A DNA stretch of 64,000 bases from Leucoraja ocellata (taxonomy: Eukaryota). The notes beneath the pieces are model-generated. The model was not told where the DNA came from. It did no database searches and saw nothing but the letters and a program-made list of their open reading frames with translations. This document shows, in pieces, positions 6,386 to 60,805 of this stretch (positions are counted from its first letter, which is position 1; each line of letters begins with the position of its first letter). The stretch is taken from the NCBI GenBank assembly GCA_036785375.1, contig JAWMAR010000133.1, positions 2,232,001 to 2,296,000 of the forward strand, in the 5' to 3' direction. The position numbers and the translations under genes were made by a program.

Positions 6386-6774
6386 CAAATCTCAGAAACA
6401 AGGAACTGCAGATGATGGGTTACAAAAAAGTCACACTGTGCTGGAGTAACACAGTAGTTTAAAGTGAGGAGTCTATGGAGAAGTTCATAAGACATAGGAA
6501 CAGAATTATGCCATTCGGCCCATCAAGTCTGCTCCACCATTTGATCATGGCTGATCTATTTCTCCCTCTCAACCCCATTCTCCTGCCGTCTCCCCGTAGC
6601 CTTTGTCACCTCACTAATCAAGAACCCATCAATCTACTTTAAATACACAGATTCACCACCCTCTAGCTAAAGAGATTCCTCCTCATCTCCATTATAAAGT
6701 ATTTCCTTTCACTCAGAGGCTTTGCCCTCGGGTCCTAAACCTTCCCTCCACTGGGAACATCCCACATCCACGTT

Positions 6775-6968
6775 GAAGGTGAGGACAAGTTCTGCCAGGC
6801 AGAGAGAGGAGAGTGTTGGTACAGAAGAACTGAGTGGATCTCTGATTAAAGGAAGAGATCGGAGGGCCCTGCGACCTTCCTGGTGAGGGATGAAGGTGTA
6901 AAGAGACCGGATGTCCATAGTAGAGATGAGGCAACCTGGGCTGAGGAACGGAAAGTTGTCAAAGCCCA
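6775..6968 (-). mobile_element. Penelope-like reverse transcriptase fragment
   Basis: LISTMDIRSLYTFIPHQEG..LAELVLTFN (PLE RT motif). Confidence 0.75.
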
Positions 6969-7091
6969 AACATCAGCTAACCATGTTCTTTAGAGTTGCT
7001 GCCTGCCCCCTGAGTTACTCCAACATCTTGTGCCTTAAAAAAAAAAAAAAAATCACAGTTGTTTGCACCTCGAAGGATTTGAAATACTCAC

Positions 7092-8456: not shown

Positions 8457-9000
8457 TAGCAATCCCAACAGTATCAGAACCGAGGTCAAGGAAAATTATC
8501 CAAGGAAGAGGCAAACTACAAGCCTTGTGCTTGAATAGAAAATGGGCTGAATGAATTTACTACTGGTTTTGTGTAGGAAGGAACTGCAGATGCTGGTTTA
8601 AACCGAAGATAGTCACAAAATGCTGGAGTAACTCATCGGGACAGGCAGTATCTCTGGAGAGAAGGGATGGGTGACGTTTCGGGTCGTCCCTGAGGAAGGG
8701 TCTCGACGGAAACGTCACCCATTCATTCCTTCCCTCCAGAGGTGCTGCCTGTCCCGCTGAGTTACTCCAGCAGTTTGTGTCTTACTACTTGTTTTGCTCT
8801 TTTTAGCTTTCGGAAGCTTTAACATCATCATGTGCTTGTGCGTAGTGTAGATCTTCGTAGGTGAAAGGTAAAGATTTGAAATGAACATGGCATGTAATAT
8901 TCAAGTTGGTGGCAGCAAGCTATTTGTCTAAGTTGGTTGTTAAAAAAGGTAAGCAAACTAGAAGAATTTCTGCTTCAAAAATGCAGTGCACCATGTGAAA

Positions 9001-15061: not shown

Positions 15062-15292
15062 CACCCCAGCGAGATGAACATTGACTTTTCTAATTTCAGG
15101 TAGTCCTTACTTTCTCCCTCCTTCCCCTTCCCTTCCCAGCTCTCCCACAGCCCACTGTCTCCACCTCTTCCTTTCTTCTTCCCACCCCCACACCAGTCTG
15201 AAGAAGGGTCTCGACCCGAGACGTCACCTATTCCTTCGCTCCATAGATGCTGCCTCACCCGCTGAGTTTCTCCAGCATTTTTGTCTACCTTC
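15062..15292 (+). mobile_element. Penelope 3' end (matches 46985-47215)
   Basis: PSEMNIDFSNFR* then pyrimidine tract and degenerate hammerhead motif. Confidence 0.8.
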
Positions 15293-16906: not shown

Positions 16907-17025
16907 CTCCCAATGGACAGAGTAAGTAAACAGCACATCATTTTCTTTGTTGGGGTCAATTTCTTGGGGAAGTGAGCCGGCTGCTTCAGGCAGGATACAA
17001 TTTCCCTTTTCATCCATTTTTAGAT
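16907..17025 (-). CDS. TM9SF4: TM9SF4 exon 7
   Basis: 119 nt, ttttag|..|gtgagt; [14 protein letters not shown]...[21 protein letters not shown]. Confidence 0.95.
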
Positions 17026-23418: not shown

Positions 23419-23482
23419 CTAAAACAAAAGAATTAAAGCTGGATTAATATCTATCTACTCTACTAAACAATTATTTTCAACA

Positions 23483-23720
23483 GGTAGACAAAAGTGCTGG
23501 AGAAACTCAGTGGGTGCAGCAGCACCTATGGAGCGAAGGAAATAGGCAATGCGTTGGGCCGAAACCTGAAGGAAATAGGCAACGTTTCTGGCCGAAACCC
23601 TTTGGGTTTCGGCCCGAAACGTTGCCTATTTCCTTCGCTCCATAGATGCTGCTGCACCCGCTGAGTTTCTCCAGCACTTTTGTCTACCTTCGATTTTCCA
23701 GCATCTGCAGTTCCTTCTTT
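23483..23720. mobile_element. Penelope-derived foldback element just upstream of exon 2
   Basis: Inverted arms, 2+1 units, imperfect TSD of about 17 bp. Confidence 0.75.
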
Positions 23721-26099
23721 AACAAATTATTTCCAACATGTTTGCCAGTATAAATCAATATTTTGATAAACATTTAATAATGTAAAAACAAGTGGTGCAT
23801 TGGTTAGTGATCAAATACAGAGTGGGTACAGTGGTTAGCACTGTGGCTTCACAGCTCGAGAGACCCAGGCTCGTTCCTGATCGAGCCTCTGGAGTTTGCA
23901 TGTTCTCCCTGCTATAGTTTTCTTCCACATGCCAAAAGATTTGCCGGCTGTTAGGTTAATTGTAAATTGCCTCTAGAGTAGCGTCATGGAAGTTGGGATG
24001 TGCAAGCATGGGTTGGTGGATGGGGATGTGAGATGAATGATGGGCTTCATGTATATACGTGTTTGAAGGTCAACATGTACGGTGTTTAGGTTTGTTTTAA
24101 TTGAGTTTATTGTTATGCAACATTATGTGCTGTGCGTTTCAGCGTTGCAAGACTTTCACTCTCGTTTCCTTCAGTCTCCCCAACACAAACATTCTCTCAC
24201 TTAAGTACCACAATGCATATTTCCCCCCATTTCCAGTTGAGCTTGCAGGAGGAAATGCAGAAAAGTATAGGTATATGGATATGGACAGGTATAAGTATAT
24301 TGAACAGGTATATGGATATGGACAGGTATAAGTATATTGAACAGGTAAATGGATAGGAATGGCTTGGAGAGATTCAGGCCAAATGCAGGTAAATGGGGCA
24401 AGCTTGGATAGGCACCTTAGTTGCATGGAAGAGTCGAGCCAGAGTCAAAAAGTGCAGTATAACTTTCACCCTTAAAACACTGGAACTGCAATAAAACTTT
24501 TGTATGGCACACTTGAAATACATCAACAATTGATCTGCAGTTAGTCCAGCAAGAAATAAGAAGTAAACGTCATTCCCTTATTGCAGGAATAATAAATACT
24601 TAAAGAATACAAAATCAAAAACCTGAACGCACCCGACACATGCCATGCTATGGGACCAATTAGAAATGACAGGCGGAAGAGATCTATTCTCAAAGCTCAC
24701 TGATGATCTCTAGTGGCATAAATCCAGTGGTGCAACATAGAACACCATCTCCAAAACTTCCAACTGAGTTATAATTTCACAATTCACAAATAGAACAGTA
24801 CAGCACAGGAACAGGCACATTACGTCAGTGCCAATTTAAACTGCACATGGTCTATGCACCTCCATTCCCTGTCAATATAAACACATTAATGTTTAATGTT
24901 CAAGAAGGAACTGCAGATGCTGGAAAATCGAATGGAGACAAAAATGCTGGAGAAACTCAGCGGGTGAGGCAGCATCTATGGAGCGAAGGAAATAGGCAAC
25001 GTTTCGGGCCAACGTTTCGGGGGGGGGGGGGGCAGGACGAAGAAACGAAAAGGTGGAGCCAGTGGGCTGAGGGAGAGCTGAGAAGGGGAGGATTAAGAAC
25101 ATTCAGGAAAACACTGAACATTTCAACTCTGTACGTAGGGATCGAATGCAAACTAGGCAACTTCCACTGAGCAGCAATCCATCCTACAATCGACACTACA
25201 ATAGTCCGTATCGGAAATTAAAAACAACAGGGGTGCTCTAAGATTGAATCAAGAGACAATACTGGTTCAAAACTAAGCTAATTTTACTGCCTGACCACAT
25301 ACAAGCTGAAAATATTAATAATGTGACAAATGTCCTACAAAAAAGTGAAATAGGATGCTTAAGAACACAGGCTAAAAGCTAGAGCTGAATTTCATGCACA
25401 AAGCTATCACCTTACATTACATATACTTTACGTACACATTTCTATCTGAAGCAAAGAAGTCGATGCATTAAATCACAGAAGGTACACAAAAATGCTGGAG
25501 AAACTCAGCAGGTGCAGCAGCATCTATGGAATGAAGGAAATAGGCAACGTTTCGGACCAAAACGTTGCCTATCTCCTTCACTCCATAGATGCTGCTGCAC
25601 CCGCTGAGTTTCTCCAGCATGTTCGTGTACCTTCTGAGATTTAATGCATCTGCAGTTCTTTCTTAAATATTAAATCCAGATCAGCTTTGGACACAACATC
25701 CTTCAAGTCTCACACATTTCAGGATGACAGATTGAAATAACATGGTCTATACAACAGTTGGGATAATGTTGATTCACTGGAACGCACCCAAGACACAGAC
25801 ACAGATATAAACAGTTTCAATTGAAGGCTGATTACAAGATGTTCCTCTCAATTCAAAGCTACGCAATGCAATTTGAGTGAAATATTCTCTCCACTGAGAT
25901 ATGATTACAACTTTTTGCAACTCAAACCAATTCCAAGTAAAACATGTTTGGAGATATTAAACCAAAATTATTATTCATGTCAGACAAAATTATTTAAACA
26001 ATTCACTACAGTTTACAAATCACTTTATCCATTTACACTATTCACAAATATTGTTGCCTTTAATCATTATTTAATTATTATATATTATTATTATTATTA

Positions 26100-26630: not shown

Positions 26631-27634
26631 CCGTCCTACTGAAACAAAATGGCACTAATAATTGGACATATTTCAAATGTACTTAAATCAAGAAATGAAA
26701 TACAGAAATATAATGACATCTCATTTTACGCAGTCAAAATTACTTTTTGCAACTTCGAGCCAGCACCGCCATTCAATGTGATCATGGCCTATCATCCCCA
26801 ATCAGTACCCCGTTCCTGCCTTCTCCCCATATCCCCTGACTCCGCTATCCTTGAAGAGCTCTACCTAGCTCTCCCTTGAAATTATCCAGAGAACCTGCCT
26901 CCACCACTAAGGCAGAGAATTCCACACACTCACAACTCTCTGTGAGAAAAAGTGTTTCCTCGTCTCCGTTCTAAATGACTTACCCCTTATTCTTAAACTG
27001 TGGCCCCTGGTTCAACGAATTCAACAATATTAAAATCTTAAACTAATTAAGAATTGGGCAAGAACTCAAATGGTTCTGCAGGGAATGAGGATATGGATCA
27101 TGTGCAGGCAGATGAGATTAGTTTATCTTGATATTGTGTTCGGCATTGATATTGTGGGCTTAACGATACGAAACTTTATTCATCCCCAGAGAGAAATTGG
27201 TCTGCTGACAGTCATCATGCAACAAGCTACACGAAAACTTGAAATTAAAATTAAATTAAAAGTGAGAAAAAAAAGAAAAAGACATAAGGGCATGTTCCTG
27301 TGCGATAAGTGTTCTGTACACTATAAAATGGATATTGAAACAATGGATGAAACTGATGAAGGGTCTCGACCTGAAACGTCACCTATTCCTTTTCTCCAGA
27401 GATGCTGTCTGACCCGCTGAGTTACTCCAGCTTTTTGTGTCTATCTTCGGTCTAAACTAGCATCTGCAGTTTCATCCTACAGAAGAAATGTTGACCCTGG
27501 AGACTGTAGATGCTGGCACCTTGAGCAAAAAACAAGGGTCCCGACCCATATCCCTCCAAGGTGCTACATGACCCATTGAGTTCCTCCAGCAGTTTGTATT
27601 TCTACAGAAGAAATGTTAGCAGGATTAAGAACGC

Positions 27635-32031: not shown

Positions 32032-32150
32032 ATCTAAAAACGGATGAAAAGGGAAATTGTATCCTGCCTGAAGCAGCCGGCTCACTTCCCCAAGAAATTG
32101 ACCCCAACAAAGAAAATGATGTGCTGTTTACTTACTCTGTCCGTTGGGAG
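32032..32150 (+). pseudogene. Duplicated TM9SF4 exon 7
   Basis: 119 nt, intact AG/GT, 2 substitutions (M>T at 32041, H>R at 32143). Confidence 0.92.
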
Positions 32151-33089: not shown

Positions 33090-33201
33090 GGTGGTCCTAT
33101 TAAATGGGCATCTCGCTGGGACACTTACTTAACCATGAGTGACGTGCAGATACACTGGTTCTCCATTGTCAATTCCGTTGTTGTTGTTTTCTTCCTCTCT
33201 G
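33090..33201 (+). pseudogene. Duplicated TM9SF4 exon 8
   Basis: 112 nt, intact AG/GT, 1 substitution (S>G at 33093). Confidence 0.92.
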
Positions 33202-33588
33202 GTGAGTTGATGATTGCTACGTTTTTCATTTTATGCAAAGGGAATCTTCACATCTACATTATTAAGCACTAACCTTGGAGGATAAATGTACGGTAGTCAC
33301 TAATAAAATTAATGAAGTATTCAAGGGGAATATAGTTTTTTTTAATCAAAGGTATAGGAGACCCCATAGCAGAAGCGTCCATGTTGCGGGAGCTGGAAAC
33401 TGGAAGTATCCTGAGCTAATTCTGCTACCACCATCATCTATTGCAACATTGCCACTGAGTGCCATCGTCCGTCTTATGCCTCCTCTTGGAAGTTGGCGTC
33501 CTTTTCAGGATGGCCGATGACAGCGATGTCAACATTTTAAACATGGAAGATGGATGCCAAAGAAGAAAGTTATAGGTAAAAAGTAGAA

Positions 33589-33850
33589 GATAGACAAAAA
33601 TGCTGGAGAAACTCAGCGGGTGCAGCAGCATCTATGGAGCAAAGGAAATAGGCAACGTTTCGGGTCGAAACCCAAAGGGTTTCGGCCTGAAACGTTGCCT
33701 ATTTCCTATTGCCTATTTTCTTCCCTTTTCTTTCCAGCATCTATGGAGCGAAGGGAATAGGCAACGTTTCGGGTGCTGCTGCACCCGCTGAGTTTCTCCA
33801 GCATTTTTGTCTACCTTCGATTTTCCAGCATCTGCAGTTCCTTCTTAAAC
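33589..33850. mobile_element. Penelope-derived foldback element (rearranged)
   Basis: 15-bp TSD AGGTAAAAAGTAGAA (33574-33588 and 33851-33865). Confidence 0.8.
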
Positions 33851-34590: not shown

Positions 34591-35865
34591 TAAGAAGCGT
34601 CATCTATCAAAAAGGATTCTCACTATCCGGATCATACCCGTTTCTTGCTGCTATCAATGAGCAGGAGGTACAGAAACTGAAGTCCCACACCACCAGGTCC
34701 AGCAACAGCTGCTTTCAGATGACCGTCAGGTTCTTTAACAGACCCACACAACCGTAATCCTACTTCAGCCATGGAACACTACACACCAGCCTTTGAACTA
34801 CCATTTTTACACATCTTTTTTCTTTTTGATGCCTTGCACAAAACGTATAACTAATGTTTTTGTCTGTTGTCTGAGTCTATCTGCCCACGATGCTGCTCGA
34901 TCAAAGGTAGACAAAAGTGCTGGAGAAACTCAGCGGGTGCAGCGGCATCTATGGAGCGAAGGAAATAGGCAACGTTTCGGCTCGAAACGTTGCCTATTTC
35001 CTTCGCTCCATAGATGCCGCTGCACCGGCTGAGTTTCTCCAGCACTTTTGTCTACCTTCGATTTTCCAGCATCTGCAGTTCCTTCTTAAACAACATTCTG
35101 CTCCATCAAGATTCTTGTTGTACCTGCAGCTCACAATACTTTTGTATTGGACAATAAAATAGTAGACTTGACCAAGACTGAATTGGATGAGTCTTGCTTT
35201 CATGTGGAAATGGATAAAGAGGTGCAGCGTGAAAATAAAACAACATGTAAATGTTGGAGATCTGGGATAAAACAGCAAATGCTAGAAACACTTAGCAGCT
35301 CGGACAGTAACTGTGGAAGGTGAAACAATCAACATTTCAGGTCGAAGGGCCTTCCTCAGACTCCACAGTTGATGCCAGACATGCGGCTTGTCTTCAGCAT
35401 TTTCAGTTTTTATTAAATGGACAGAGAAATTCATTAAGAGATAGAATTTCCATGATTTCTTCGAGCTTTACAGTGCAGTTGCATATTGTGCATGTTTTAA
35501 AAAGTATCAATTCACGACAGTGTTCAATATCCAATTATATATAAATATTTTATGATGAGATTTCCCTTCACAATTACAACTTTTACTCTGCAATGCAAGA
35601 TGTCCCAAAGCTACTACTTCCTCCTTCACCCTACCCAATCCTTCCTTTGTCTTATTTACAACATTTGCAATTTATGTTAGATGTAGGCAATTTTTTTTTG
35701 ATATATCGCCATGGCATTCTAAATTATGTGCACTGCCTTTAGTTTCATAATAACAACAAATAATTGAGAGCAGAAAGATTAAAGGTGAGTGGGAAAAGAT
35801 TCAAAAGGAAATGGAGGGGCAACATTTTGGGGGTGGGTGTATGGAATGAGCTGCCAGAAGAGGTA

Positions 35866-36046
35866 TTTATGAAGGAACTGCAGATGTTGGAAAATCGGTA
35901 GACAAAAATGCTGGAGAAACTCAGCGGGTGCAGCATCATCTAAGGAGCGAAGGAAATAGGCAACGTTTCGGGTCGAAACGTTGCCTGTTTCCTTCGCTCC
36001 ATAGATGCTGCCTCGCCCGCTGAGTTTCTCCAGCACTTTTGTCTAC
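35866..36046. mobile_element. Penelope-derived foldback element (similar copies at approx. 25477-25668, 34905-35090, 37211-37427)
   Basis: 15-bp TSD CTGCCARAAGAGGTA. Confidence 0.75.
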
Positions 36047-39000
36047 CTGCCAAAAGAGGTAGTTGCGGCAGATACTATAACAACATTGAATAGCTATTTA
36101 GACATGTATATGGATATGAAAGGTGCAGAGGATATATATGGGCCAAACGCAGGTAAACAGTTCAAGGTATCACATAGCTAGATTGAAATAAAGCCAAAGT
36201 TCTGAAAAATGAATTAAAGATCAAGCCAAATGTCCACGCAGCCAAATAATGAAAAAACAATTGACATCACTTCCTGTCACATTTCTGGATTCAGCAGATT
36301 TATTACATTGGTTCAAGTGTTATCAAGCCTTGACTTTAAAGTGATTCAGAAGAGAAATAAAAATCAGGACAGATCCTAGGCAATTATTTTCTAAGAGCAT
36401 ATGTAAAAATAATAAGCGACATTCCTGTAATTTAAGGTTAAAATCAAGGACTTTTCAGATAGAGTAGACTGCTAATGGATGGAAATGTCTTGCAATCGTT
36501 CAAGGAAGCTCTGGATGCCAAATAGTATTTTTGGATGGAAGATAATGGCCTCCCACGTTAAGTCTCACCATCAGGAAGTAAATGATGGTTAGGCACTTAC
36601 GCAAGAAAGAATTAATGAAAATAATTCAGGAGTCATATTTTAAATATATATTCTCAGTCAAAAATGCACAGATCAACTAGATGGGGTGGGAGATTGCAAC
36701 CTTCACGTGGTCCGCCCTGTTTCGACCAGGCCTGCAAAATCAAATAGAACAAGTTGTCCTTCAACTTCAGGCTGTGCACGCCATACGCAAGAAGAAGAAG
36801 ATTAATTAGATAATAAGATGGTTTCCCTTGAACATTCATTATTACACAATACCACTTGGTGTGTAGCTCCTGCAGATAGCAAAATAAGAATACATTTTCA
36901 AATGAATTTTCAAGTACAAGCACAACACCTTCAATAACTTTGACATATGGGGGAAAAAACGATGATTATTGGCAATAATGCTTGACAACACACCAACAGT
37001 TGTATCCACATACTTCACACAACCATATATCCAGAATTGCTTAGACACAGATTTGCTAATTCGGCTCACCGATGATGAATGTGTGTAAACAAGACAGGCA
37101 ACTACCACACACGTGTATCATTCGGTTAATAAAACATCTAGAAAATCATTTCATATACAATCTAGCAATTTAGCTATATTTTTCAACACAAGATCCAAAC
37201 TCTTTAAGTGAAGGTAGACAAAAATGCTGGAGAAACTCAGGGTTTGAGGCAGCATCTATGGAGCGAAAGAATAGGTGACGTTTCGGGTCGAGTCCCTTCA
37301 GGACCCTTCTCGACCCGAAACGTCACCTATTCCTTCGCTCCACAGATGCTGCCTCACCCGCTGAGTTTCTCCAGCATTTTTGACTGCCTGTGATTTTCCC
37401 AGCATCTGCAGTTCTCTTTCTTAAACAACTCTTAAGTGAAGTATTTTCAAGAACAGCAAGTGTGTAATCTGATACACCAAATGCTGCCCAACCTGCTGAG
37501 TTACACCAGCATTTTGTATCCATCTTTGGTATCAACCAGCATCCTTTTGATTACATTAATCAGCCTTTGAATACAGGCAGATTGTACATTGACAGTTGAA
37601 ACGACTTATCTCTTTACATTACAGCTATAACTTTTACGGTAATGTTTGGGTAATCATGAGAACTCCCTTCAGGAAAACACAATCAGTTCACAAATTGCTT
37701 CTCCAAATATTAAACATTCTAACCCGAGTAAATTCTGACAAATTCCCAGAATCACCAAAGGAAATAAATTTATCACACCTCAGAAACACCACTTGCAAAT
37801 AACTCCACACAATCAGAGGTGCCTCCAATGGGATTAAAGCAACTAAAGAATGCCCACACATAAATAACCTTGAAGGCAGCAATCCATTAAATAGAAAATT
37901 GCAGATATAAGACACCGCAGTTGCTAGAATTTTGAGCAAAACACAAAGTGCTAGAGGAACTCAGCGGGTCAGGCAGTCTGAAGAAGGGTCCCAACCCGAT
38001 AAGTTATTTGTTCATCCCCTCCCCAGATGCTGCCTTACCTGCTGTGTTCCTCCAGCACTTTGTGTTTTCCTTGTAATAGAAAACTATTATGCAGCTCAAC
38101 CCACCATTTTTAATGCAAACTTGCATCAACTATTTACTTACAACTATTTAAAAATAGCAATCTTGTTGTGTAATACCAGGCTTGTTAAACACTGTCTTGA
38201 ACCCCTGAAAAGTACTTAGATATATGCAAAATACAATGGGTGAAGTTACTGCCTTGGATTCACTCCACGAATGGTTTACATGTAGGGCGTGGAACAGTTT
38301 GACCAGCAGTCCTTCAGTTTAAATAAAGTGTGGGAAAGGCTGATGGGACAAGACATAGGAGATGCTGTGAAGGAGTTAAAGGGATTGGGCCCCCTCTGCT
38401 CCTGGATATTCAGGGGCTTTGACCACCGGCTACAGGGGCTTTGATCGCCCCGAATGCGGATGGTAGAGGAATAAGTTTGAATTTTATTGCCTTCCATCAC
38501 AGAGAGGAATGTGGAATCCACTGTGGTGGATGTTTATGTTAACATTTATGTGGTTGTGTGTCTTGTTGCTTTTCACTTAGTGTGGCCGTATGGTAACTCA
38601 AATTTCACTGTACCTTAACTGGTACATGTGACAATAAACTAGCCTTGAAACCTTGAACCTTGGAACTTTGAGTCTGGTGGGGACATTTCACAGATAAGGG
38701 CAGGGATATCACCCCAGGGACCACATGAGTGGAAAGGGTGCTTTGTGTAAAGACAGATGCAAACACTAATGCGTATGTCACAATTAAATGTACAGGCGCA
38801 AGATCAAAGTTCACACCAGGAACAGCGCGGAACAGTACAAAACAGGAACAGGCCCTTTGAGCTATGATGTCTGTGTGAAACATGATGCGAAACGAATCTA
38901 ATTTGCTTACTCGAGATCCCTATCCCTCCATATCGATCTGCCTATCCAAAAGTCTCTTAAATGCCACTAATGTATCTGTCACCCGCTGAGTTTCTCCTGC

Positions 39001-40422: not shown

Positions 40423-40810
40423 TACGCACAGATGTGCATAATACATATACACACATATACATATACACACATGTACATAATACACATATACATACAAATA
40501 CACACATGTACATGATACAGATATGCACATACATGTACATACATATATCCACAAATATACATACATATACACACACAGACATATGTACATGTGTTCGGTC
40601 TGAAGAAGGGTCTCGACCCGAAACGTCACCCATTCCTTCTCTCCAGAGATGCTGCCTGACCCGCATCTGCAGTTATTTCTTGTACATACACACATATACA
40701 TATAGATCACATGCAAACACATTTATTTATATATATTTCTAGCTACAGTATATATACAGAGACATTATCCGTGTATTAATAATGCCTGTGTTTATACACA
40801 TACACACATA
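40423..40810. repeat. (AC/AT)-rich low-complexity tract
   Basis: Degenerate ACATAT/ACAC repeats beside the gap. Confidence 0.85.
40597..40630 (+). ncRNA. Minimal hammerhead ribozyme motif
   Basis: GGU-CUGAAGA-A-GGGUCUCGACCC-GAAACGUC-ACC; 3-bp stem I. Confidence 0.7.
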
Positions 40811-40849: not shown

Positions 40850-41350
40850 CAGTTAAAGGGCAGGGCCCGCGGGCCCGGGACTGGACGGGACGCTGCCGCC
40901 TGATCGTGGTCGCCCGGCCCCGGCTCCCTCCCCACCCGCCGGCCCGGGCGCCTGTTACCCGGTCGGTGCCCCCACCGCACCCCGGCCCACCCCGGCCCCC
41001 CGCTGCCGTCCCCCCGCGGCGGGAAGCGGACGGACACCCCTTGACTCTCACCCTCCTCGCCGCCATCTTGTCGTCCACGTGTCACGCGCGACGTCACCGA
41101 CGTCACTCAGGCCCCGCCCCTCCCCCAAACCCCGCCCTCATTAACCCGGACCCTCCCACAAACCCCGCCCCTCCTCCCAAACCCCGCCCTCCCTTAACCC
41201 GGCCCCTCCCCGCCTCCAAAACCCCGCCCTCCCTTAACCCGGCCCCTCCCCGCCTCCAAAACTCCGCCCCTCCTCGAAACCCCGCCCCTCCTCAAACCCC
41301 GCCTCTCTCACAGACCCCGCCCCTCTCACAGACCCCGCCCCCTCCCCCAG
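40850..41350 (-). promoter_or_regulatory. CpG island / TM9SF4 promoter
   Basis: GC- and CpG-rich around exon 1; about a dozen CCCGCC GC boxes, two TGACGTC CRE-like sites (41090-41106), CACGTG E-box (41076-41081), YY1-like AAGATGGCGGC over the ATG. Confidence 0.85.
41052..41066 (-). CDS. TM9SF4: TM9SF4 exon 1 coding part (MAARR)
   Basis: caagATGGCG Kozak context in CpG island, 15 nt then GTGAGA donor, phase 0 fits exon 2. Confidence 0.85.
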
Positions 41351-42689
41351 ACCATTGACACTAAAGATACTAGTATCCTCCAGTAGACAAACATGCTGGA
41401 GAAACTCAGCAGGTGAGGCAGCATCTATGGAGCGAAGGAATAGGTGACGTTTCGGGTTGAGACACACATGTATATACATAAGAAGGGTCTGATGGAGGGT
41501 CTCGACTCTCCTTCACCCAGAAAAATTGCACTATTACGAGTATATGTACGTATATATATTTATTGCTCATTATTCTATGTTCACTCGTCTGGGGCGATGC
41601 TAACTGCATTTCGTTGTCTCTGTACGGCACACTGCACAATGACAATAAAGTTTGAATCTGAATCTGAATCCATAGATGCTGCCTGTCCCGCTGAGTTTCT
41701 CCAGCATTTTTGTCTATCTTCGATTTTCCAGCAGCTGCAGTTCCTTCTTAAACAGTATCCCCTAGTATCTTTGATTGATAGTCTGCTGGAAATCGAGGAA
41801 GGCAGCTGCAAACTCTCCCTTGTAGACACAAAATGTTGGAGTAACTCAGCGGGACAGGCAGCGCCTCTCGCAAGAAGGAATGGGTGGCATTTCGGGTCGA
41901 GACCCTTCTTCAGACTGATGTCGGGGGAGAGGGAGACACAGAGATGGAATGTGGTCGGAGACAGTGAGACTGGTGGGAGAACTGGGAAGGGGGAGGGGAT
42001 GGAGAGAGAGAGGGAAAGCAACGGCTGTCTGAATTTTTCTTTCAAGTTTCGATTTAAACCAACATCTGCAGTTCTTCTGACACAAACTCTCCCTTGTCCC
42101 GTCTTCAGTGACCCGAAACGTCATCCATTCCTTCTCTCCAGAGATGCTGCCTGACCCGCTGAGCTACCCCAGCATTTTTTGTCTCCCTTTTCCTCTCTAA
42201 TTAAGCATTTGCACTTCAAAGCACCATGGAGAGAAAATGTGCATTCATTTTTAAACATAGATACACAGACAATAGGCGCAGGAATAGGCCATTTGGCCTT
42301 TCTAGCCACCACCACCATTCAAATATCCAATCAGTACACCACCGTTCCTGCTTGCTCCCCATATTCCTTGATTCTGTCAGCCCTAGGATCTAAATCTTAC
42401 TCTCTCTTCAAAACATCCAGTGAATTGGCCTCCACTGCCTTCCTCTGTGGCAGAGAATTCCACACATTCACAACTGTTTTCCCTCATCTCATTTTCCTTT
42501 TCCTCTCTACACTTTGCACTTCAAAACTACATGGAAAAAATGTGCATTCATTTAGATTATTTATTCCCTGCCCATGTTGAGGTTGCATTTGCAACAACAC
42601 TATTGTTATGATTGCAAACACAATACTGTATCACTCTGTAACACAAATTGTATCACTCCATGACATCTCTGTCATTTCACTTCCATTTT

Positions 42690-42857
42690 GCTGCCTGACC
42701 CACTGAGTTATTCCAGCACTTTGTGAAACGTCACCTATCAAGGTTCTCCAGAGATGCTGCCTGACCCACTGAGTTACTCCAGTACTCTGTGAAACGTCAC
42801 CTATCCATGTTCTCCAGAGATGCTGCCTGACCCGCTGAGTTACTCCAGTACTCTGTG
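42690..42857 (+). repeat. 66-bp tandem repeat (about 2.5 copies) of Penelope-derived 3' sequence
   Basis: Units start at 42690, 42756 and 42822. Confidence 0.85.
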
Positions 42858-42896
42858 TATTAATCTGTTCTGGCAATAGTTTCCCATTTTAGCATA

Positions 42897-44692: not shown

Positions 44693-45760
44693 ATTTTATT
44701 TATGGGCACCTTTCAAGAGTCTCAAGGACACCTTACAAAAATTTAGCAAGTAGAGGAAAAACATGTAAGGGGAATGAAATTAATAGTAGAGACATGACTA
44801 GTACACAAATCATAAATTAAAGACAGAATTCAATTCAAAACACAATATGAGGCAAAATACACCCAGAATACAATTTAAAGTTGACATTCTAGAGAGACCC
44901 ACCCATGCGTTAGTCACTTGTTTATTTGCAATAAGTTCACAACTCCATTGTTCTGACAGTAATATTATCCAGTACTATTCTACTTTTTCTACAAGGATGA
45001 TATTACAGTACTGGTGTGTTATGTTCTGAGTTGTGGATCACAAAAGATTGACACACCGCCAACACAAAGCTGGGTTTAATTTAAACGGTTTCTAATTTTG
45101 GTCAGGGAATTGTGACAACACCAGCAGTCATGAAATGAAAGGACATGAATTATGCACTACTAGTTAGTTCCAGCATCTTATTCTTCTGGGGCGTGCAGAG
45201 CCTAAAGTTGTAGGTCAGCCTGTTCTATCTGATTGCTTTGTTTGTGTACGTCGGGTTGATTGCATTAGATGGACCATGTGAAGGTTGCAATCTCCCACCC
45301 CAGCATCTTGTCAAGGGCATAGGACATAGAACAGTACAGCACACAAACAGGCCCTTCAGCCCACAAGGTCCATGATGTCAAGGCCAACTCCTATCTGCCT
45401 GTGCATAATCCATATCCCTCCATTCACTGCATATCAACATGCCTGTTCAACTCTTTTAAATGCCACTAATATATCTGCCTCCACGATCACCTCCCACCCT
45501 CTGTTTCAAAACGTGCCCTGCACATCTCCTTTAAGCTTTGCCCCTCTCAAGGTAAAAGTTATGCCTTCCAGTAAAATTGATTTTTCCATCCTGGAAAAAA
45601 GGCTCTGACTGTCTATCCTGTCTATGCCTCTCCTAATTGTATATTCTTCCATCATGTATCCCAACAATTTCAGGTTCCCAGGTATTCTTTTACTCTGGTC
45701 ACTTCAGGTTTGACGGCCTGTACTCTGGAGAACACATGAAGTTTGTAACTCAGTGACTAA

Positions 45761-45986
45761 TGCCCCTGTCCCACTTAGGAAACCTGAACGGAAACCTCTT
45801 GAGACTTTGCTCCCCACCCAAGGTTTTCGTGCGGTTCCCGGAGGTTTTTATCAGTCTCCCTATCTGCTTCCACTATCTGCAACCTCCGGCAACCACCTGC
45901 AACCTCCGGGAACCGCACGGAAACCTTGGGTGGGGCGCAAAGTCTCCAGAGGTTTCCGTTCAAGTTTCCTAAGTGGGACAGGGGCA
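45761..45986. mobile_element. PIF/Harbinger-type MITE, near-perfect palindrome
   Basis: TGCCCCTGTCCCACTTAGGAAAC.. arms of about 85 bp, TAA/TTA flanks. Confidence 0.8.
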
Positions 45987-46639
45987 TTAGGATACCTCGT
46001 GTAAGAAAGAACTGCAGATGCTGGTCGACATAAATCGAAGGTAGACATAAAATGCTGGAGTAACTCAACGGGTGAGGCAGCATCTCTGGATCCCATTCCT
46101 TCTCTCCAGAGACGCTGCCTCACCCGCTGAGTTACTCCAGCATTTTGTGTCTACACTCAGTATACCTTTATTGTCGTTGCCAAATTGCAGCAATTATGAC
46201 TCTCTAATACCAGGAAGTGAAAATCATCTTGAAATAAAATAGTCAGTAATAAAAATCATACTTTTTGGTCTATTGGAGATTAAAATTAATCCGATTTTTT
46301 TGGCAAGCTCTGTAGAACTTAGTTGTGATTACAAAGTTCTTTAAACATGCGAGCGTGATGCGTCTAGTGTGATTGTGACATAGCTGGTTGTAATTAAGTG
46401 TGAGTGTAAGTAAATTAGTCAAGTTATTGTCAGATGTATAAATATGGGTAGACAGAGATACATTGAAAGTCATACCTGCGGCAATATCACGGCCATGTAA
46501 ACTCAAACTGTACAGGAGGCAACTCAGAATACAGAGGATAAAGTCTGGAGATATCCTTGAATATTCCAGCCAGATTGTCCTCACACAAGTCTTTAACAAT
46601 TGACCAGATATGCTGATATATGCTGATATAAATGCTACA

Positions 46640-47215
46640 CTTGTCACTTTACCTCCCCCCCCTCCACTCCATCCAAGGACCCAAGCAGTCTTTCCAGGTG
46701 AGGCAGAGGTTCACCTGCACCTCCTCCAACCTCATCTATTGCATCCGCTGCTCTAGGTGTCAGCTGCTCTACATCAGTGAGACCTAGCGTAGGCTTGGCG
46801 ATCGCTTCGCCCAACACCTCCGCTCAGTTCGCAAAAATCAACCCGATCTCCCGGTGGCTCAGCACTTCAACTCCCCTTCCCATTCCGAATCCGACCTTTC
46901 TGTCCTGGGCCTCCTCCATGGCCAGAGTGAGTCCCACCGCAAATTGGAGGAGCAGCACCTCATATTTCGCTTGGGTAGTTTACACCCCAGCGGTATGAAC
47001 ATTGACTTCTCCAATTTCAGGTAGTCCCTGCTTTCTCCCTCTTTCCCCTCCCATTCCCAGCTCCCCCACAGCCCACTGTCTCCGCCTCTTTGTTTCATCT
47101 TCCCACCCCCCTCCCACATAAGTCTGAAGAAGGGTCTCGACCCGAAACGTCACCTATTCCTTCGCTCCATAGATGCTGCCTCACCCGCTGAGTTTCTCCA
47201 GCATTTTTGTCTACC
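46640..47215 (+). mobile_element. Penelope-like element 3' fragment: GIY-YIG endonuclease pseudogene (46668-47024) plus 3' repeat with hammerhead motif
   Basis: FTCTSSNLIYCIRCSRCQLLYISET*RRLGDRFAQH..VAQHF..RKLEEQHLIFRLGSLHPSGMN; in-frame stop at 46785. Confidence 0.9.
47121..47155 (+). ncRNA. Minimal type I hammerhead ribozyme motif (PLE-associated)
   Basis: CUGAAGA-A-GGGUC(UC)GACCC-GAAA-CGUC core. Confidence 0.7.
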
Positions 47216-47491
47216 GAAGGAAATGCAGATGCAGGTTTACAAAAAAAAGAAACAAAGTGCTGGAGTAACTCAGCAGGTCAGGCAGCATCTTTGGAGAACA
47301 TGGATAGGTGATGTTTCAGGTTGGAGCCTTCTTCAAACTCGCTGAAGTAGGGTCCCGACCAGAGTCACTGTCAATCCATGTTCTCCATAGATGCTGCCCG
47401 TCCTGCTGAGTTACTCCAACAGACAAAACGAGTAGGAAGGAACCGCAGATGCTAGCTTAAACCGAAGATAGACACAAAAATGTTGGAGTAA

Positions 47492-47812
47492 TAGCCCTGT
47501 CCCACAGTGCGAGTTCATTCCAAGAGCTCTCCCGAGTTTAAAAAAAATCAAACTCGTGGTTAGCACGGAGAATGAACGTAGCGGGTACGTCGGAGCTCGG
47601 GGACGTCCCTTAGCACTAACGGCAGGTACTCGGGAAGACTCGCTAACGGCAGGTAAGCACGGGAAGACTAGTGAAGATTTTTCAACGTGATGAAAAATGT
47701 CCACGAGAGCCCCGAGTACCGACGAGTGGTCATTACCGTAAATCTCCCGAGTTCGAATCAGGGCAAACTCGGGAGAGCTCTGGGAATGAACTCGTACCGT
47801 GGGACAGGGGTT
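47492..47812. mobile_element. PIF/Harbinger-type MITE nested in a Penelope-derived repeat
   Basis: Interrupts GGAGTAA|CTCAG with 3-bp TWA flanks. Confidence 0.8.
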
Positions 47813-48490
47813 TTACTCAGCGGGACAGGCTGCATCTCTGGAGAGAAGGAATGGGTGTCAAGACCCTTCTTCAGGCAGATCAGTCTCCTGAAGATCCCTT
47901 CATTGGTGAGAAGGCCAGTAGCTGTGATGGGCCGGGCTGTGTCCACCACTCTGTCATTCATGGGCATTCTATACATTACAGGCCTGATGGCTGGCAATTT
48001 CCTGTCTATTTTCACCCAGCCTATCGGTAAAACTCCAAACCCTAAACCCAGTATGGTCTTTGGTTGCATTGCATCACCTCAGTCTGTCCCTAAATCTCGA
48101 CCTATGTACCCTCTCTCCAACAAATGTCCGTGTTTGTATGTTTCCCATCATTGGCCCTGGCGAACACTGGCATGACTGAGCTCGCCAGTTTCCTTCACTG
48201 AAAATTTGAGACTGAGGCTTTTGTTCTCTGCACTCTTTGTTTCTTTGCCAACGACTTAATCCTGTTGTCTCGTCAGTCAAGCAGAGTGGTTGCCAGCGCA
48301 ATTATTCTTGTAGAGTACTGCTCGCTGGCAATAACCCCCTCACCTGCATACACCTGTCACCTGCCTCCACCTGTAACCTGTTTCCACCTTTTACCACCTG
48401 TTACCTGCCACATGCCCCCTGCCACGTTTAGGCTGTACTCCGTTAAGTCCTGATCTGAAACACCACTGATCCATGCTTTCCAGAAATGCT

Positions 48491-48801
48491 TCAGAAGGTA
48501 GACAAAAGTGCTGGAGAAACTCAGCGGGTGCAGCAGCATCTATGGGGCCAAGGAAATAGGCGACGTTTCGGGCCGAAACCCTTTGGGTTTCGACCCGAAA
48601 CGTCGCCTATTTCCTTCGGGTTTCGACCCGAAACGTTGCCTATTTCCTTTGGGTTTCAGCCCGAAACGTTGCCTATTTCCTTTGGGTTTCAGCCCGAAAC
48701 GTTGCCTATTTCCTTTGGGTTTCGGCCCGAAACGTCGCCTATTTCCTTCGCTCCATAGATGCTGCTGCACCCGCTGAGTTTCTCCAGCACTTTTGTCTAC
48801 C
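48491..48801. mobile_element. Penelope-derived foldback element with expanded array
   Basis: One 33-nt unit in the left arm and five in the right; 12-bp TSD TCCAGAAATGCT. Confidence 0.8.
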
Positions 48802-50398
48802 TCCAGAAATGCTACCTGACCCGCTGAGTTTTTAGTCTCAGTTTTAGAGATTGATCGTGGAGCCAGGCCCTTTGGCCCACCGTGTCTGCGCTGACCAACT
48901 AGTTCAAACCTACACACCGGGGATAATTTACAGAAGCCAATTAATCTTCAAACACGCACACGTCTTTGGAATGTGGGAGGAAACCAGAGCACCCGGGGGA
49001 AAAAAAACCCCACGCAGAACCCCACGGGGAGAAGGTACAAACTCCGTACAGACAGCTCCCGTGGTCAGGATCGAGCCCAGGTCTCTGGCGCTGTGAGGCA
49101 CCATATCATTGTGCTGCCCGCGGGAGTTACTCCAGCACTAGTTGTTGCCTTCTGTACATCAATCATACAGCCACATACCGTACCAAAGATACACTGGTTC
49201 TATTGACAGTGCATGTGACAATTAAACCACTCCCAGCTCATCACGACCCTGGCGATTCCAATTTTTAATTATCTCGATTTACTTCAACTCATTATGACAA
49301 TAGATGGCGCTGTTGGTCCTTGAAACCCATCAACCAGATAGCCGTTCCTCCTTTTAAAAATGTTTTCTTCATCAATATTCTTTCTACCTCAGCCATTATA
49401 GGACGTCCCATCCAATGATACCCCCCCCCCCCCCCCCCCCCCCATATTCCCATGGCCTATTTGTGATGATCATTGCTGGATTTCACAGCAATGATAAGAG
49501 TCACAGGGTCAATGTTTAAGAAAAAACTGCAGACTCTGGAAACATCGAAGGTAGATACAAATGCTGGAGAGACTCAGTGGGTGAGGCAGCATCTGTGGAG
49601 TGAAGGAATAGGCGACCTTTCTGAAGAAGGGTCTCGACCCGAAACGCCACCTATTCCTTCGCTCCACAGATGCTGCCTCACCCGCTGAGTCATAGAGTCA
49701 TATCACTCTCCAGCTGGTTAGTTTAGTTTAGAGATACATCGCGGAAACAGGCCCGCAGGTTCTCTTGGACACTTTCAAGAGAGAGCTTGAGGGGGCTCTT
49801 AAAGATAGCGGAGCCAGGGGATATGGGGAGAAGGCAGGAACGGGGTACTGATTGGGGATGATCATTGAATGGCGGTGCTGGTTACTCCTGCACCTATTGT
49901 CTATTGCAGGTGCTGGAATCTTGCAAAGAACACAAAATGCTGGAGGGACTCAGCAGGTCGGGCAGCACCTATCCATACCCTCCACAGATGTTATCTGAGC
50001 CGCTGACGAAGAAAGCTTGACTTGACTTGAATTCCTCCAGCACTTAGAGTGTTTTGTTCAAGATTGCAACGTCTGCAGTTCGTCGCGCCTCCATTGCCCT
50101 TTGGAAATCCAGAAAATTACGACTGGTGTCAAAATATTTACAAAGATCAGATGTCATTTTGTACACACTTATGCAGAATCATCATTAATCGTACCTTTTA
50201 GAGTTGACAAATTTCAGAACAAGCAGTGTCGAGATTAAGGCACTTTATTTCACACTTCAAGCATTAATTCAAATATACATTATGAATTCGTATAATTTTG
50301 AAATTATAATTTCATATTTTCAAGCCATGTGAAAAATAAAGGCAGCTTGCAAATCTTTAAGCATGGGCAATACTATAATCCATACTAAGCAAAGCTCT

Positions 50399-50975
50399 TT
50401 AAGAAGGAACTGCAGATGCTGGAAAATCGAGGGTAGACAAAAGTGCTGGAGAATCTCAGCGGGTGCAGCAGCATCTATGGAGTGAAGGAAATAGGCAACG
50501 CTTCGGGCCGAATAGGAACCGTTTCAGGAAATAGGCAACGTTTCGGGCCGAAACCCTTCGGGTTTCGACCCGAAACGTTGCCTATTTCCTTCGCTCCATA
50601 GATGCTGCTGTGCCCGCTGAGTTTCTCCAGCACTTTTGTCTATCTGCAGTTGCTTCCCCCGCAAGGAAAGCTGGAAGCATGGCGATGATTTACATCAACA
50701 CCGGAGTTTGTGACAATGAAAGACGAGGTTATTCGCAGCTGAGGAAGCGAAATTGGATGGTCAACAGTTTTGTGAGAATAAGCTTATTGTGAGTTTCACA
50801 GACAAAGCCAGTGTAGAGAGGTCAAACGGAATGTCCAGAGCAAAGGCAGGACTTTATCTGGTCACTAAAATCCGTTTGCCTATTTCCTTTGGGTATCGGC
50901 CCGAAACGTTGCCTATTTCCTTCGCTCCATAGATGCTGCTGCACCCGCTGAGTTTCTCCAGCATTTTTGTCTACC
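50399..50975. mobile_element. Composite Penelope-derived element with unique internal segment
   Basis: 14-bp TSD CTAAGCAAAGCTCT (50385-50398 and 50976-50989). Confidence 0.75.
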
Positions 50976-51880: not shown

Positions 51881-52186
51881 GAAAATATTTACGATCATCG
51901 TGAAGGCTTGTTATTTTCAGTGATTTAAAAAATAAAAACCTTCTACACTCTACAGACTTTGGAATACATGTTTCAAAACATCATCCACACAGATTAAGTT
52001 ATTTCCTGAATCACTATGCGAATAAAACAGCTGTTTATGTAAAGAAATGCATTATGTTAAAGAGTGTTTTATTGTCATGTGTCCCAGATAGAACAATGAA
52101 ATTGTAAGGTCCTTGTGTGGTTTGGAAGTAATTAAATTATTTTTCTATATTATGAAACAACCCAATGGATGTTGTCGTGTAAGTCA

Positions 52187-52518
52187 AGGGCCTGTCCCAC
52201 TTAGGCGATTTTTTCGGAGACTGCCGGCACCCGTCATAGTCGCAGCAGGTTGCTGAAAATGTCCAACATGTTGAAAATCCAGCAGCGATCAGAAAAAGGT
52301 ACGTATCTTTGGGAGACGACTCACGACCATACAGGCGTCACGTGTCGACATGTCGCGGGGGTGAAGCCTGTACGGTCGTGAGTAGTCGCCCAGAGAGTCG
52401 TACCTTTTTCTGGTCGCCGTTGAATATTCAACATGTCGAAAACCATCGGCCACCTGCTGCCACCATGACGGGTGCTGGCAAGTCGCCGAAAGAAAATCGT
52501 GTAAGTGGGACTGGCCAT
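52187..52518. mobile_element. PIF/Harbinger-type MITE
   Basis: AGGGCCTGTCCCACTTA TIR; same family as 2760-3060. Confidence 0.75.
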
Positions 52519-52899
52519 TGACTACACTATCCAAGAGTGTCATATAGGTGTACGGCCTTCAATATAAAAATAGGGCACGCTAAAATATAAACGGTGATGT
52601 GAATGAAACTACAGTACCAATATTATTTGGAGCATTTCAGCAAATATAAACCTTCTTGTTCAGCCATCAACGAACAAATGATTTGTTTGACGTTTCCGTA
52701 GAACATTTGCTAATACATATTTTAAAAAAGTTATTGAAAATATTTGACGTGGAAAATACATTGCTTACAGTCGATAATGTTAGAAACCATTCTCACTTCG
52801 GACATGGTGCAAAAAATGCAAGTGCAGACCTCAATAAAGTCAAAACTAAAATGGATGGCTTGGGAGACCCATTCTCTGTCCATACTTGGCACTTGGTAA

Positions 52900-56027: not shown

Positions 56028-56177
56028 ATGAATCATGACCATGAATTAGAAATGATTCTAATCATGAATGAGATCCTTGCAGAAACAGATGCGGCAGATG
56101 CTGATTTATACCAATGTCAGACACAGAGTGTTGGAGTAACTCAGAGGGTCAGGCAGCATCTCAGGATCAAAAGGATG

Positions 56178-56210
56178 GGTGACGTTTCGGGTGGGGACCC
56201 TTCTTCAGAC
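56178..56210 (-). ncRNA. Minimal hammerhead motif on the HCK sense strand
   Basis: GU-CUGAAGA-A-GGGU(CCCC)ACCC-GAAACGUC-AC. Confidence 0.6.
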
Positions 56211-56245: not shown

Positions 56246-56882
56246 ACATAGAAACATAGAAAATAGGTGCAGGAGTAGGCCATTCGGCCCTTCGAGCCTG
56301 CACCGCCATTCAATATGATCATGGCTGATCATCCAACTCAGTATCCTGTACCTGCCTTCTCTCCATACCCCCTGATATCTTTAGCCACAAGGGCCACATC
56401 TAACTCCCTCTTAAATATAGTCAATGAACTGTGGCCTCAACTACCTTCTGTGGCAGAGAGTTCCAGAGATTCACCACTCTCTGTGTGAAAAATGTATTCC
56501 TCATCTCGGTCCTAAAAGATTTCCCCCTTATCCTTAAACTGTGACCCCTTGTTCTGGACTTCCCCAACATCGGGAACAATCTTCCTGCATCTAGCCTGTC
56601 CAAACCCTTAAGAATTTTGTAAGTTTCTATAAGATCCCCCCTCAATCTTCTAAATTCTAGCGAGTACAAGCCGAGTCTATCCAGTCTTTCTTCATATGAA
56701 AGTCCTGACATCCCAGGAATCAGTCTGGTGAACCTTCTCTGTACTCCCTCTATGGCAAGAATGTCCTTCCTCAGATTAGGAGACCAAAACTGTACGCAAT
56801 ACTCCAGGTGTGGTCTCACCAGGACCCTGTACAACTGCAGTAGAACCTCCCTGCTCCTATACTCAAATCCTTTTGCTATGAA
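56246..56882 (-). mobile_element. CR1 LINE 3' fragment
   Basis: AKGFEYRSREVLLQLYRVLVRPHLEYC..WNSLP, open frame. Confidence 0.9.
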
Positions 56883-59037: not shown

Positions 59038-59862
59038 CAATAGACAACAGACAATAGGTGCAGGAGTAGGTCATTCGGCCCTTTGAACCAGCACTGCCAT
59101 TCAAAGTGATCATGGCTGATCATCCCCAATCAGTACCCCGTTCCTGCCTACTCCCCACATCCCCTGACTCCGCTATCTTTAAGAGCTCTATCTAGCTCTC
59201 TCTTGAAAGCATCCAGAGAACTGGCCTCCACCGCCCTCTGAGGCAGAGAATTCCACAGACACACAAACACTGAAAAAGTGTTTCCTCGTCTCCGTTCTAA
59301 ATGGCTTACCCCTTATTCTTAAACTGTGGCCCCTGGTTCTGGACTCCCTCAACATCGGGAACATGTTTCCTGCCTCTAGCGTGTCCAAACCCTTAATAAT
59401 CTTATATGTTTCAATAAGAACGCCTCTCATCCTTCTAAACCCCAGAGTGTACAAGCCCAGCAGCTCCATTCTCTCAGCATATGACAGTCCTGCCATCCCG
59501 GGAATTAACCTTGTAAACCTACGCTGCACTCCCTCAATAGCAAGAATGTCCTTCCTCAAATTAGGGGACCAAAACTGCACACAATACTCCAGGTGTGGTC
59601 TCACTTAAGAATTAGGGGTCGGCCATTTAGAACGGAGATAAGGAGAGTTGTGAGTCTGTGGGATTCTCTGCTTCAGAAGGCAATGAAGGCCAATTCTCTG
59701 GATGCCTTCAAGAGAGAGTTAGATAGACCTCTTAAAAATAATGGAGTCAGGGAATATGTGGAGAAGGCAGGAACGGGGTACTGATTGTGGATGATCAGCC
59801 ATGATCACATTGAATGGCTCGAAGGGCCGAATGGCCTCCTCCTGCACCTGCTGTGTATTGTC
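59038..59862. mobile_element. Two CR1 3' fragments joined head-to-head at about 59604
   Basis: Minus copy 59038-59604, plus copy 59605-59862, both with tails. Confidence 0.8.
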
Positions 59863-60805
59863 TAACACCATTCTCTTTCTCTTACTCAGTTTTCAATTGC
59901 TCATTAATTTCCCCGTTTACCCTCTCTCCTCTTTCCAACTTTCTCTCTCTCCTTCTGCGGCTAACTCTTTTATTTTCCCTTCATCCTTTCCACAATTTCC
60001 ATTTCCTGGCCTCCAGTCATCGGCTTCACTTCACTTCCTATAGAACGTCGGTGTTTCAATCTTTAAAATGAGAGCCCGCCTCTCTCATTCGCCTTCACTC
60101 TGTGCAGATCTCCCCGGGTCCCACCCAGTGAAACCATCAATAAAGCCGCTAGAGTTACGATGGGATCATAGTGCGACGTGCAACAAATTAAAAATCCTTT
60201 CCTCATATTTCTCTTTCAGCGAGAGCAGACACACAAGGGTTTGGAATGAGGAAGTAGCTTGTATTTTTTCAAACACTGTGTACTTTGCTTATCATTCTTC
60301 TTCTTATCGAGCCCACAAACAAGATTAGGAGATTGATACAAACAGGGCCGCGACGTGAACGCTCTTTCCTTGACCTACCCCCACCCCCCACCCCCCCCCC
60401 CGCTTATCATTAACAGCGGCCAGTTTAATCTACTGGAGGACATCCTGTGAAGAGCCATTTTTACAAAAAGTACTTTCGAAGGCATGTGAGGACTCAAGAG
60501 TGTTTAATGTTTAAAGGGCCCTGCCCCACATTCACGACCTAATTCACGATCATTTTTACTCGGGGACATTTTTCAACAAGCTAGATAAAACGCTGCGATC
60601 TTCGTGACGCCACGAGTACCTCAGACTAGCATCACGACCTACCTACGACCTCGTGCTGCGAGTACGAGTCAAGGGCAAACTCGGTACCAGAAGGTACAGG
60701 AGCCTGAAATCTACAACGTCTAGGTTCAGGAATAGCTACTTCCCCACAGCCATTCGACTATTAAACTCAACTCAAACAAAAATCTGAACTTTAATTGCCT
60801 ATTGC

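Follow-up and report, generated by a model that had tools for sequence, protein, structure and literature searches.

Minimal hammerhead ribozymes (min-HHRs) reside in the pseudo-LTRs of Penelope-like elements (PLEs), fish Neptune elements included, and are distinguished by an extra base after A9, a palindromic helix III, and an occurrence mostly as single truncated copies and as opposite-strand pairs (PMC4209133, in the portions available). The same portions report no activity for monomers and low activity for dimers, and put the number of motifs at about 4,000 for coelacanth and about 9,000 for Xenopus tropicalis; in its alignment and table, as far as these are available, no cartilaginous fish appears. 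PLEs characteristically leave inverted copies, palindromic junctions and one-sided tails (available parts of PMC3846280, PMC8557442 and PMC8969392), and a CX2-5CxxC linker together with a CCHH motif marks the Neptune and Nematis clades (PMC8557442, in part). In the green anole, the hammerhead of the Poseidon element PAc cuts only in the presence of the element's protein and, in the accessible sections of that study, no RNA-seq ends were found at the hammerhead cut site (PMC11167929). Non-LTR retrozymes are defined, in the accessible text, by at least two consecutive head-to-tail units with complete hammerheads (bioRxiv 10.64898/2026.07.22.740005). A literature search returned nothing on the PLE/hammerhead family described below in skates, Leucoraja, elasmobranchs or sharks, for which Repbase or Dfam entries are possible.

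The window, by which is meant the whole 64,000-nt stretch of Leucoraja ocellata DNA analysed here, contains a motif that is very probably the minimal type I hammerhead of a Neptune/Nematis-type PLE pseudo-LTR, its dispersed copies being passive fossils rather than a working ribozyme load on the host. The CTGAAGA box (47124-47130) is followed by the extra base after A9 (A 47131), helix II (47132-47143), the GAAA box (47144-47147) and CGTC up to 47151. Helix I comprises two base pairs (47122-47123 with 47152-47153) and helix II four (47132-47135 with 47140-47143), the latter carrying a 4-nt CUCG loop and lying within published limits (3-7 bp, G10.1-C11.1 closing, loop of 3-10 nt). The palindrome ACGU (47147-47150), at positions 15.1-16.1 of the published consensus, leads into an NUH triplet with no loop III (ACGU-C, 47147-47151), and the predicted cut site lies between 47151 and 47152. 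An earlier, sequence-only reading had described a hammerhead with a palindromic ACGU helix III in a PLE 3' repeat at 47121-47155, about 100 nt after a GIY-YIG stop codon. Its sequence and coordinates were right, the gap from the stop (47022-47024) to C3 is 100 nt, and the class assignment is supported by anatomy, homologs and the available part of PMC4209133. Its helix II of five pairs with a 2-nt loop (GGGUC-UC-GACCC) is rejected in favour of the 4-bp form, a 2-nt loop being unrealistic. For stem I, which it gave as 2-3 bp, helix I has two pairs in the focal copy and three only at 40600 among complete cores; with a third pair in just 2 of the 11 arms, 2 bp is the family majority.

This short helix I places the focal copy outside the published descriptor, which requires at least 3 bp. 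Since PMC4209133, in the portions available, also accepts 2-bp variants such as that of D. virilis, the motif is, judged by its sequence, a short-helix variant of the min-HHR class and not a non-member; with 2 bp as the family norm, published scans would miss most members. The two-box pattern matches eight times in the window against 0.56 +/- 0.72 expected, a count reached by none of 100 shuffles, and a structural scan allowing a helix I of at least 2 bp gives three matches in the window and none in each of 40 simulated controls. Rfam hammerhead models gave no match in the window at E <= 1 and none over the focal copy at E <= 10, a null that is expected for a motif without helix III but adds no support; Rfam miRNA matches, all under the gathering score, were discarded as PLE palindromes and microsatellites. 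The focal core lies between two genes, both encoded on the other strand, and the body downstream of it adjoins a separate, older head-to-head pair at 47217-47421. Coordinates of the features are collected in the table.

Table. Features of the window: the focal element, other copies, host genes and further repeats.
Feature	Position	Strand	Basis or remarks
Focal minimal type I hammerhead	47122..47153	+	core sequence, structural scan
Rest of pseudo-LTR body	47154..47215	+	stops at short 3' terminus (~+92), no tail
Dead 5'-truncated PLE ORF end	46630..47024	+	protein search, GIY-YIG profile
Pyrimidine-rich PLE 3' UTR	47025..47121	+	common to copies 15062-15189 (+) and 25023-25098 (-)
Second 5'-truncated copy (ORF end, 3' UTR, core)	15062..15292	+	sequence comparison
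Copy with 3' UTR and tail	24903..25098	-	CUGANGA box and helix II 5' side absent
Old PLE insertion	6400..7035	-	RT fragment between two arms
Complete core, 3-bp helix I	40597..40664	+	antisense, TM9SF4 intron 1
Complete core, 2-bp helix I, loop CCCC, tail present	56088..56210	-	kinase intron
Core with both boxes and helix II, no helix I	27353..27476	+	truncated at C3; tail present
Head-to-head pair	8577..8787	.	+ arm: both boxes, helix II broken; tail on - arm only
Subfamily B palindrome, example	23481..23718	.	UUCG loop, recurrent junction, tail on one arm, flanking duplication
Further subfamily B palindromes	3845-4123, 20737-21122, 25473-25663, 33585-33845, 34889-35086, 35871-36050, 48488-48802, 50402-50651	.	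further members
TM9SF4	from exon 1 (near 41067) down to position 1	-	frame scan
Hck/Lyn-like kinase, last exons	58659-52900	-	frame scan
MITE-like palindromes	52177-52527, 2756-3064, 5287-5490, 8209-8457, 45757-45990, 47494-47803		
~600-nt repeat copies, RT and LINE-type fragments	4428-5029, 9000-9605, 11518-12143, 56248-56882, 59038-59605, 26081-26578, 679-1044		

The identity of the element is indicated by the coding remnant upstream of the core, which retains a GIY-YIG region (LIY...YIS), a CCHH motif and only the CxxC half of the CX2-5CxxC zinc linker between reverse transcriptase (RT) and endonuclease (EN). This ORF end is inactivated by the change of YIG to YIS, an in-frame TAG (46785-46787) and a frameshift near a poly-C run (~46656-46665), and it matches the Pfam GIY-YIG profile at E 0.025, below the curated cutoff. 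Protein searching recovered 29 relatives among 108 candidates, the nearest from Leucoraja and Rhinoraja at 78-84% identity, with rays and sharks next. Linker and CCHH motif are found in most of these homologs, and the linker is complete in named skate, ray and shark sequences. By these marks the element appears to be a PLE of the Neptune/Nematis type, of either clade; the window contains no full-length element. RT sequence of this element is represented by a 47-residue fragment in the older copy at 6400-7035, which combines an inverted arm (6965-7035, +), an RT-motif fragment (6772-6918, -) and a tail-bearing 3' end (6400-6455, -), and may be one insertion or two. The second copy with an ORF end, at 15062-15292, has a mutated GAAA box and matches the focal copy at 90.6% identity across 233 nt. 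A protein search with the translated hammerhead region, aimed at variation between species, gave one match among eight candidates and was set aside. In a distant relative (P0028, from an ENA contig), read-through past the endonuclease holds a peptide that fits a translated hammerhead core, which suggests, at the level of sequence, the same endonuclease-hammerhead layout in a far lineage. A donor-like CAG/GTAG lies at the ORF stop (47019-47026, and likewise at 15098-15105), and a pyrimidine tract ending in CAG stops two bases 5' of the core in several copies (47110-47123, also 15185-15197). This arrangement resembles D. virilis Penelope, in which an intron extends as far as helix I, and a ray gene model (P0006) appears to be spliced at this donor.

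Copies of the repeat are far more numerous than the sequence-only reading had counted: nhmmer identifies 88 fragments in the window and none in the reversed window, covering 6906 of 64,000 nt (10.8%), and all 13 further sites that had been listed are copies of the same repeat. Most are ruined. The CUGANGA box is present in 13 of the 88, both boxes in 10, and both boxes with helix II and the cut triplet in four; complete cores, which also possess helix I, number three (47124+, 40600+ and 56208-), the core being lost in the other 85. The four further cores said to retain both conserved boxes (40600, 27353, 8690 and 56208) do retain them, but those at 8690, where helix II is broken by one deletion and one mismatch, and at 27353, which has no helix I, are not intact. 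Under the published descriptor 40600 is the sole pass, to which 47124 and 56208 are added if a 2-bp helix I is allowed.

Three complete cores in 63.7 kb correspond to 47 per Mb (95% range 10-138) and, like for like under the published descriptor, to 16 per Mb (95% range 0.4-87), a value that cannot be distinguished from the ~6 per Mb of Xenopus. Scaled to a skate genome of 2-2.5 Gb, 47 per Mb would give about 10^5 complete cores; all these figures are upper-leaning guesses because the window was picked for the motif seen there. The very large genome-wide hammerhead load proposed earlier is only partly supported: it holds for remnants, of which there are 88, but three of the 88 are structurally complete, one passes the published descriptor, and the like-for-like density does not stand out from that of Xenopus. 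Stem II covariation across copies, the lack of which that reading had named as one half of what would count against it, was also sought: among 26 arms hand-picked from the 88, shuffles scored as high in 417/500 and 327/500 runs and no compensatory signal was found. Since inserted copies decay without selection from few masters, this is a weak test that speaks neither for function nor against it. The substitutions seen in helix II affect one side only and keep wobble pairing (U-A to U-G at pair 12:17 in 18 of 59 arms), and its loop varies.

Could the dispersed complete cores nevertheless be active in vivo, as trans dimers or with the PLE protein, and impose a self-cleavage load on host pre-mRNAs that shapes orientation and perhaps gene regulation? 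This is unlikely, despite the three complete cores in 64 kb, one of which (56208-) lies in sense in an intron of the Hck/Lyn-like kinase gene, the only complete core so placed in a host gene. Genic arms lean towards the antisense strand, by 7 to 2 among those with a CUGANGA box and by 12 to 4 among those spanning the whole core, but neither bias is significant (p 0.18 and 0.077); the former split hints weakly at selection against sense copies, which would then cut on occasion. The related lizard hammerhead does cut when the element's protein is present, but published min-HHR monomers are inactive and dimers poorly active, and RNA-seq ends at the lizard cut site were not found (available sections of PMC11167929 and PMC4209133). 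The focal copy, moreover, is intergenic. Predicted folding also argues against activity, the active fold with its 2-bp helix I being barely populated: helix I pair probabilities are at most 0.06 in every local fold, the ACGU duplex yields -1.7 kcal/mol, and in its sequence context helix II has rival folds. A different hairpin, covering helix II and GAAA on the sense strand of complete copies, was discarded, being populated at 0.01 or less. Homodimer co-folding produced off-pathway duplexes and no double hammerhead, a result of little weight as the method models that structure poorly. Nearest-neighbour folding omits tertiary contacts and protein help and may thus underrate activity; a few copies may cut with protein help.

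The arrangement of the copies points the same way, since complete cores lack nearby partners and pairing into hairpins would hide the core; cutting is therefore expected to be rare. On the same strand, complete cores come no closer to one another than 6.5 kb and sit in different transcription contexts. Most fragments are opposed on the two strands, an arrangement that would generate hairpins, not double hammerheads, and further weakens the proposed load. Inverted-pair hairpins have predicted energies of -64 to -214 kcal/mol (z -19.6 for one) and, by these models, would bury any core.

The sequence-only reading missed this dominant architecture, in which pairs stand head to head with a tail on one side and duplicated target sequence, and one subfamily has no catalytic box. 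Among the 64 arms reaching the body motif there are 20 head-to-head pairs, four tail-to-tail pairs and six direct neighbours. Arms terminate at one of two 3' ends, ~+92 or, with an extra tail of ~30 nt, ~+124 (24 of 64 arms). Exactly one arm bears the tail in 15 of the 20 head-to-head pairs, both in one and neither in four (Fisher p 0.028), and a word of at least 8 nt recurs on both flanks of 8 of the 20 pairs, compared with 4 of 380 mismatched controls; one-sided tails and matching flanks together indicate that many pairs are single insertions. Flanks are AT-rich (0.65-0.66 vs 0.56). The cut site is spanned by 67 of the 88 arms, which implies template RNA either uncut or rejoined at that point. 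Arm 5' starts fall at +4 to +16 in 45 of 88, and no pile-up at the cut site (+28 to +30), as a trace of cleavage, was found (2 of 88 fragments); these ends were taken from profile alignments, which overshoot at palindromic junctions. The PLE hallmarks of inverted pseudo-LTR, 5' truncation, one-sided tail and variable target duplication are all present in the window.

Several loci bear on individual insertions. At 20737-21122 and 25473-25663 the inverted repeat extends ~20 nt past the element into the flank, which suggests fold-back synthesis copying part of the target. An inverted duplicate of 1.4 kb (31888-33283 vs 15772-17177, 98% identical), on the opposite strand inside intron 1, holds two TM9SF4 exons, and this duplicate is without the PLE arm of 17184-17277, leaving an AT-rich empty paralogous site; dating this insertion by the empty site failed, as the flanks differ (98% and 85%).

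Subfamily B comprises 27 arms in nine clusters, whose loop reads UUCG and whose cut site is GUU-G or GUC-G. The CUGANGA box is absent from all 27, positions +1 to +4 being missing throughout, and these are the least diverged arms (4.5% vs 12.6%). One junction sequence is common to seven loci, six of which have the same C-to-T change at the junction CpG; CpGs within the arms survive in 84 of 98 instances, giving p 5e-5 for independent decay. In three other loci the junction is a short palindrome that covers helix II and GAAA. From these sequences, a palindromic master moving as a unit without a working ribozyme is suggested. By eye, junction polarity relative to the tail-bearing arm is mixed (2 vs 3 loci), which weakens the single-master reading, and the same pattern would follow from a coding master whose G8 is mutated and whose fold-back point is stereotyped. 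No literature was found on a palindromic non-autonomous PLE family, for which repeat databases may have entries.

Alternatively, the short inverted pairs could belong to class II, as foldback or MITE-like elements at the DNA level with an incidental likeness to a hammerhead, a view favoured by their resemblance to terminal-inverted-repeat elements with flanking duplications and by the lack of the catalytic box from every subfamily B arm. This is very improbable, however, as the arm sequence is the same as that found 3' of the PLE endonuclease, the ends are asymmetric with a one-sided tail, duplications range from about 8 to 15 nt, and junctions vary among pairs outside subfamily B. Another family of imperfect palindromes (~230-350 nt), unrelated to this one, has similar termini, is MITE-like in form and occupies at least six loci. 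Tandem expansions of the GAAA-containing half of the hammerhead, without a CUGANGA box, are found at 48585-48715 (33-nt units), 42689-42866 (66-nt units) and 3961-4025, and look most like products of slippage between short direct repeats. An origin of the copies as monomers or arrays from a non-LTR retrozyme, propagated through circular RNA cut by paired hammerheads, is scarcely credible even with such short units and a chondrichthyan genome reported to carry retrozymes (10.64898/2026.07.22.740005, accessible text), as no tandem unit has a CUGANGA box and none therefore supplies two consecutive complete hammerheads.

Under the preferred reading of a PLE hammerhead with fossil copies, a PLE with this pseudo-LTR would have spread heavily in the skate genome. 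On the RNA of a full tandem element, two motifs would pair through ACGU and cut slowly after GUC, as the literature indicates, probably with a requirement for the element's protein. Reverse transcription would start 3' of the motif on uncut RNA and usually stop or fold back within the hammerhead, often at helix II, leaving short copies, single or inverted, to decay. Such dispersed copies would be passengers: transcribed inverted pairs would form hairpins of 60-130 bp that hide the core, and the three complete cores, with no nearby partner, would cut rarely if at all.

Both host genes were identified in a scan covering 300 of the 306 frames of at least 65 residues, and their order matches HCK-TM9SF4 synteny. 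TM9SF4 exon 1 (five codons) is accompanied by a GC-box-rich CpG-island promoter (41053-41330, -); PLE arms are present 50 nt 5' of the GC boxes as well as in intron 1, ~400 nt from its start. The ~600-nt repeats with RT and LINE-type fragments are ordinary LINE/SINE background. HDV-like (CPEB3-type) look-alikes at 29209-29271 (+), 33348-33426 (+) and 60318-60389 (-) score 18, 30 and 25 bits against a gathering threshold of 35; each is seemingly damaged in at least one helix, and those at 29222 and 60375 lie in one repeat. They are probably 5' ends of non-LTR elements, and a literature search for HDV-like ribozymes in sharks found an R2 paper only.

A wider reading, held tentatively and as a single whole that we incline somewhat against, is that skates carry of the order of 10^5 complete hammerheads with a 2-bp helix I missed by scans, and several hundred thousand hairpin-forming inverted remnants making up as much as a tenth of gene-rich DNA. 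As part of the same reading, subfamily B would be a ribozyme-less palindromic non-autonomous retroelement of ~180-250 nt, born of fold-back inside helix II and mobilised as a unit by the PLE protein. If true, the hammerhead would be dispensable in vivo for PLE mobilisation, and skate introns would be a major source of long double-stranded RNA. The known pairing of retrotransposon and ribozyme is extended here to skates by sequence that is mostly fossil; the remaining interest lies in the very high remnant density, a 2-bp helix I that hides from scans and a possibly self-standing palindromic subfamily. Were the window typical, many dated insertions, two mapped RT starts and the fold-back junctions would form a natural dataset on how PLEs make inverted copies and whether the hammerhead acts in vivo, for which intronic strand bias of complete versus dead cores offers a direct computational test.

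Set against the known systems, in each case as far as the available text of the source extends, the family shares with non-LTR retrozymes (10.64898/2026.07.22.740005; PMC7229834) non-coding, PLE-derived units, type I hammerhead sequence and a reported occurrence in one chondrichthyan; unlike the head-to-tail arrays of retrozymes, with a complete hammerhead per unit, subfamily B is head-to-head and has no catalytic box. Like PAc (PMC11167929), it has two reverse-transcription starts that define the tail, AT-rich targets and a hammerhead upstream of the start points, the main template of PAc being uncut RNA. PAc, however, belongs to another clade and its ORF starts in helix II, whereas no conserved start codon is established in the window; it is for PAc that cleavage is demonstrated. 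In common with the EN+ Neptune/Nematis PLEs (PMC8557442) and those of Adineta (PMC3846280), there is a GIY-YIG domain with CCHH, a zinc-finger linker of which the window copy retains half and the named homologs the whole, 5' truncation, inverted 5' copies, palindromic junctions, a tail of 30-40 nt at one end and target duplications of ~8-15 nt; in contrast to these elements, most insertions in the window are two inverted arms of 50-120 nt without coding sequence. The closest match is to the metazoan PLE min-HHRs (PMC4209133), with which the motif shares CUGANGA plus the extra base, G10.1-C11.1, GAAA-NN-UH and the palindromic 15.2-16.2, together with a pseudo-LTR site after the endonuclease, dispersed truncated copies and close opposite-strand pairs. 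It departs from their descriptor, with its helix I minimum of 3, in a 2-bp helix I, as does D. virilis, and is set apart by a helix II of only 4 bp and a very high remnant density. The PLE hammerhead is thus a kind already published from PLE repeats, and the skate copy is an extension of it.
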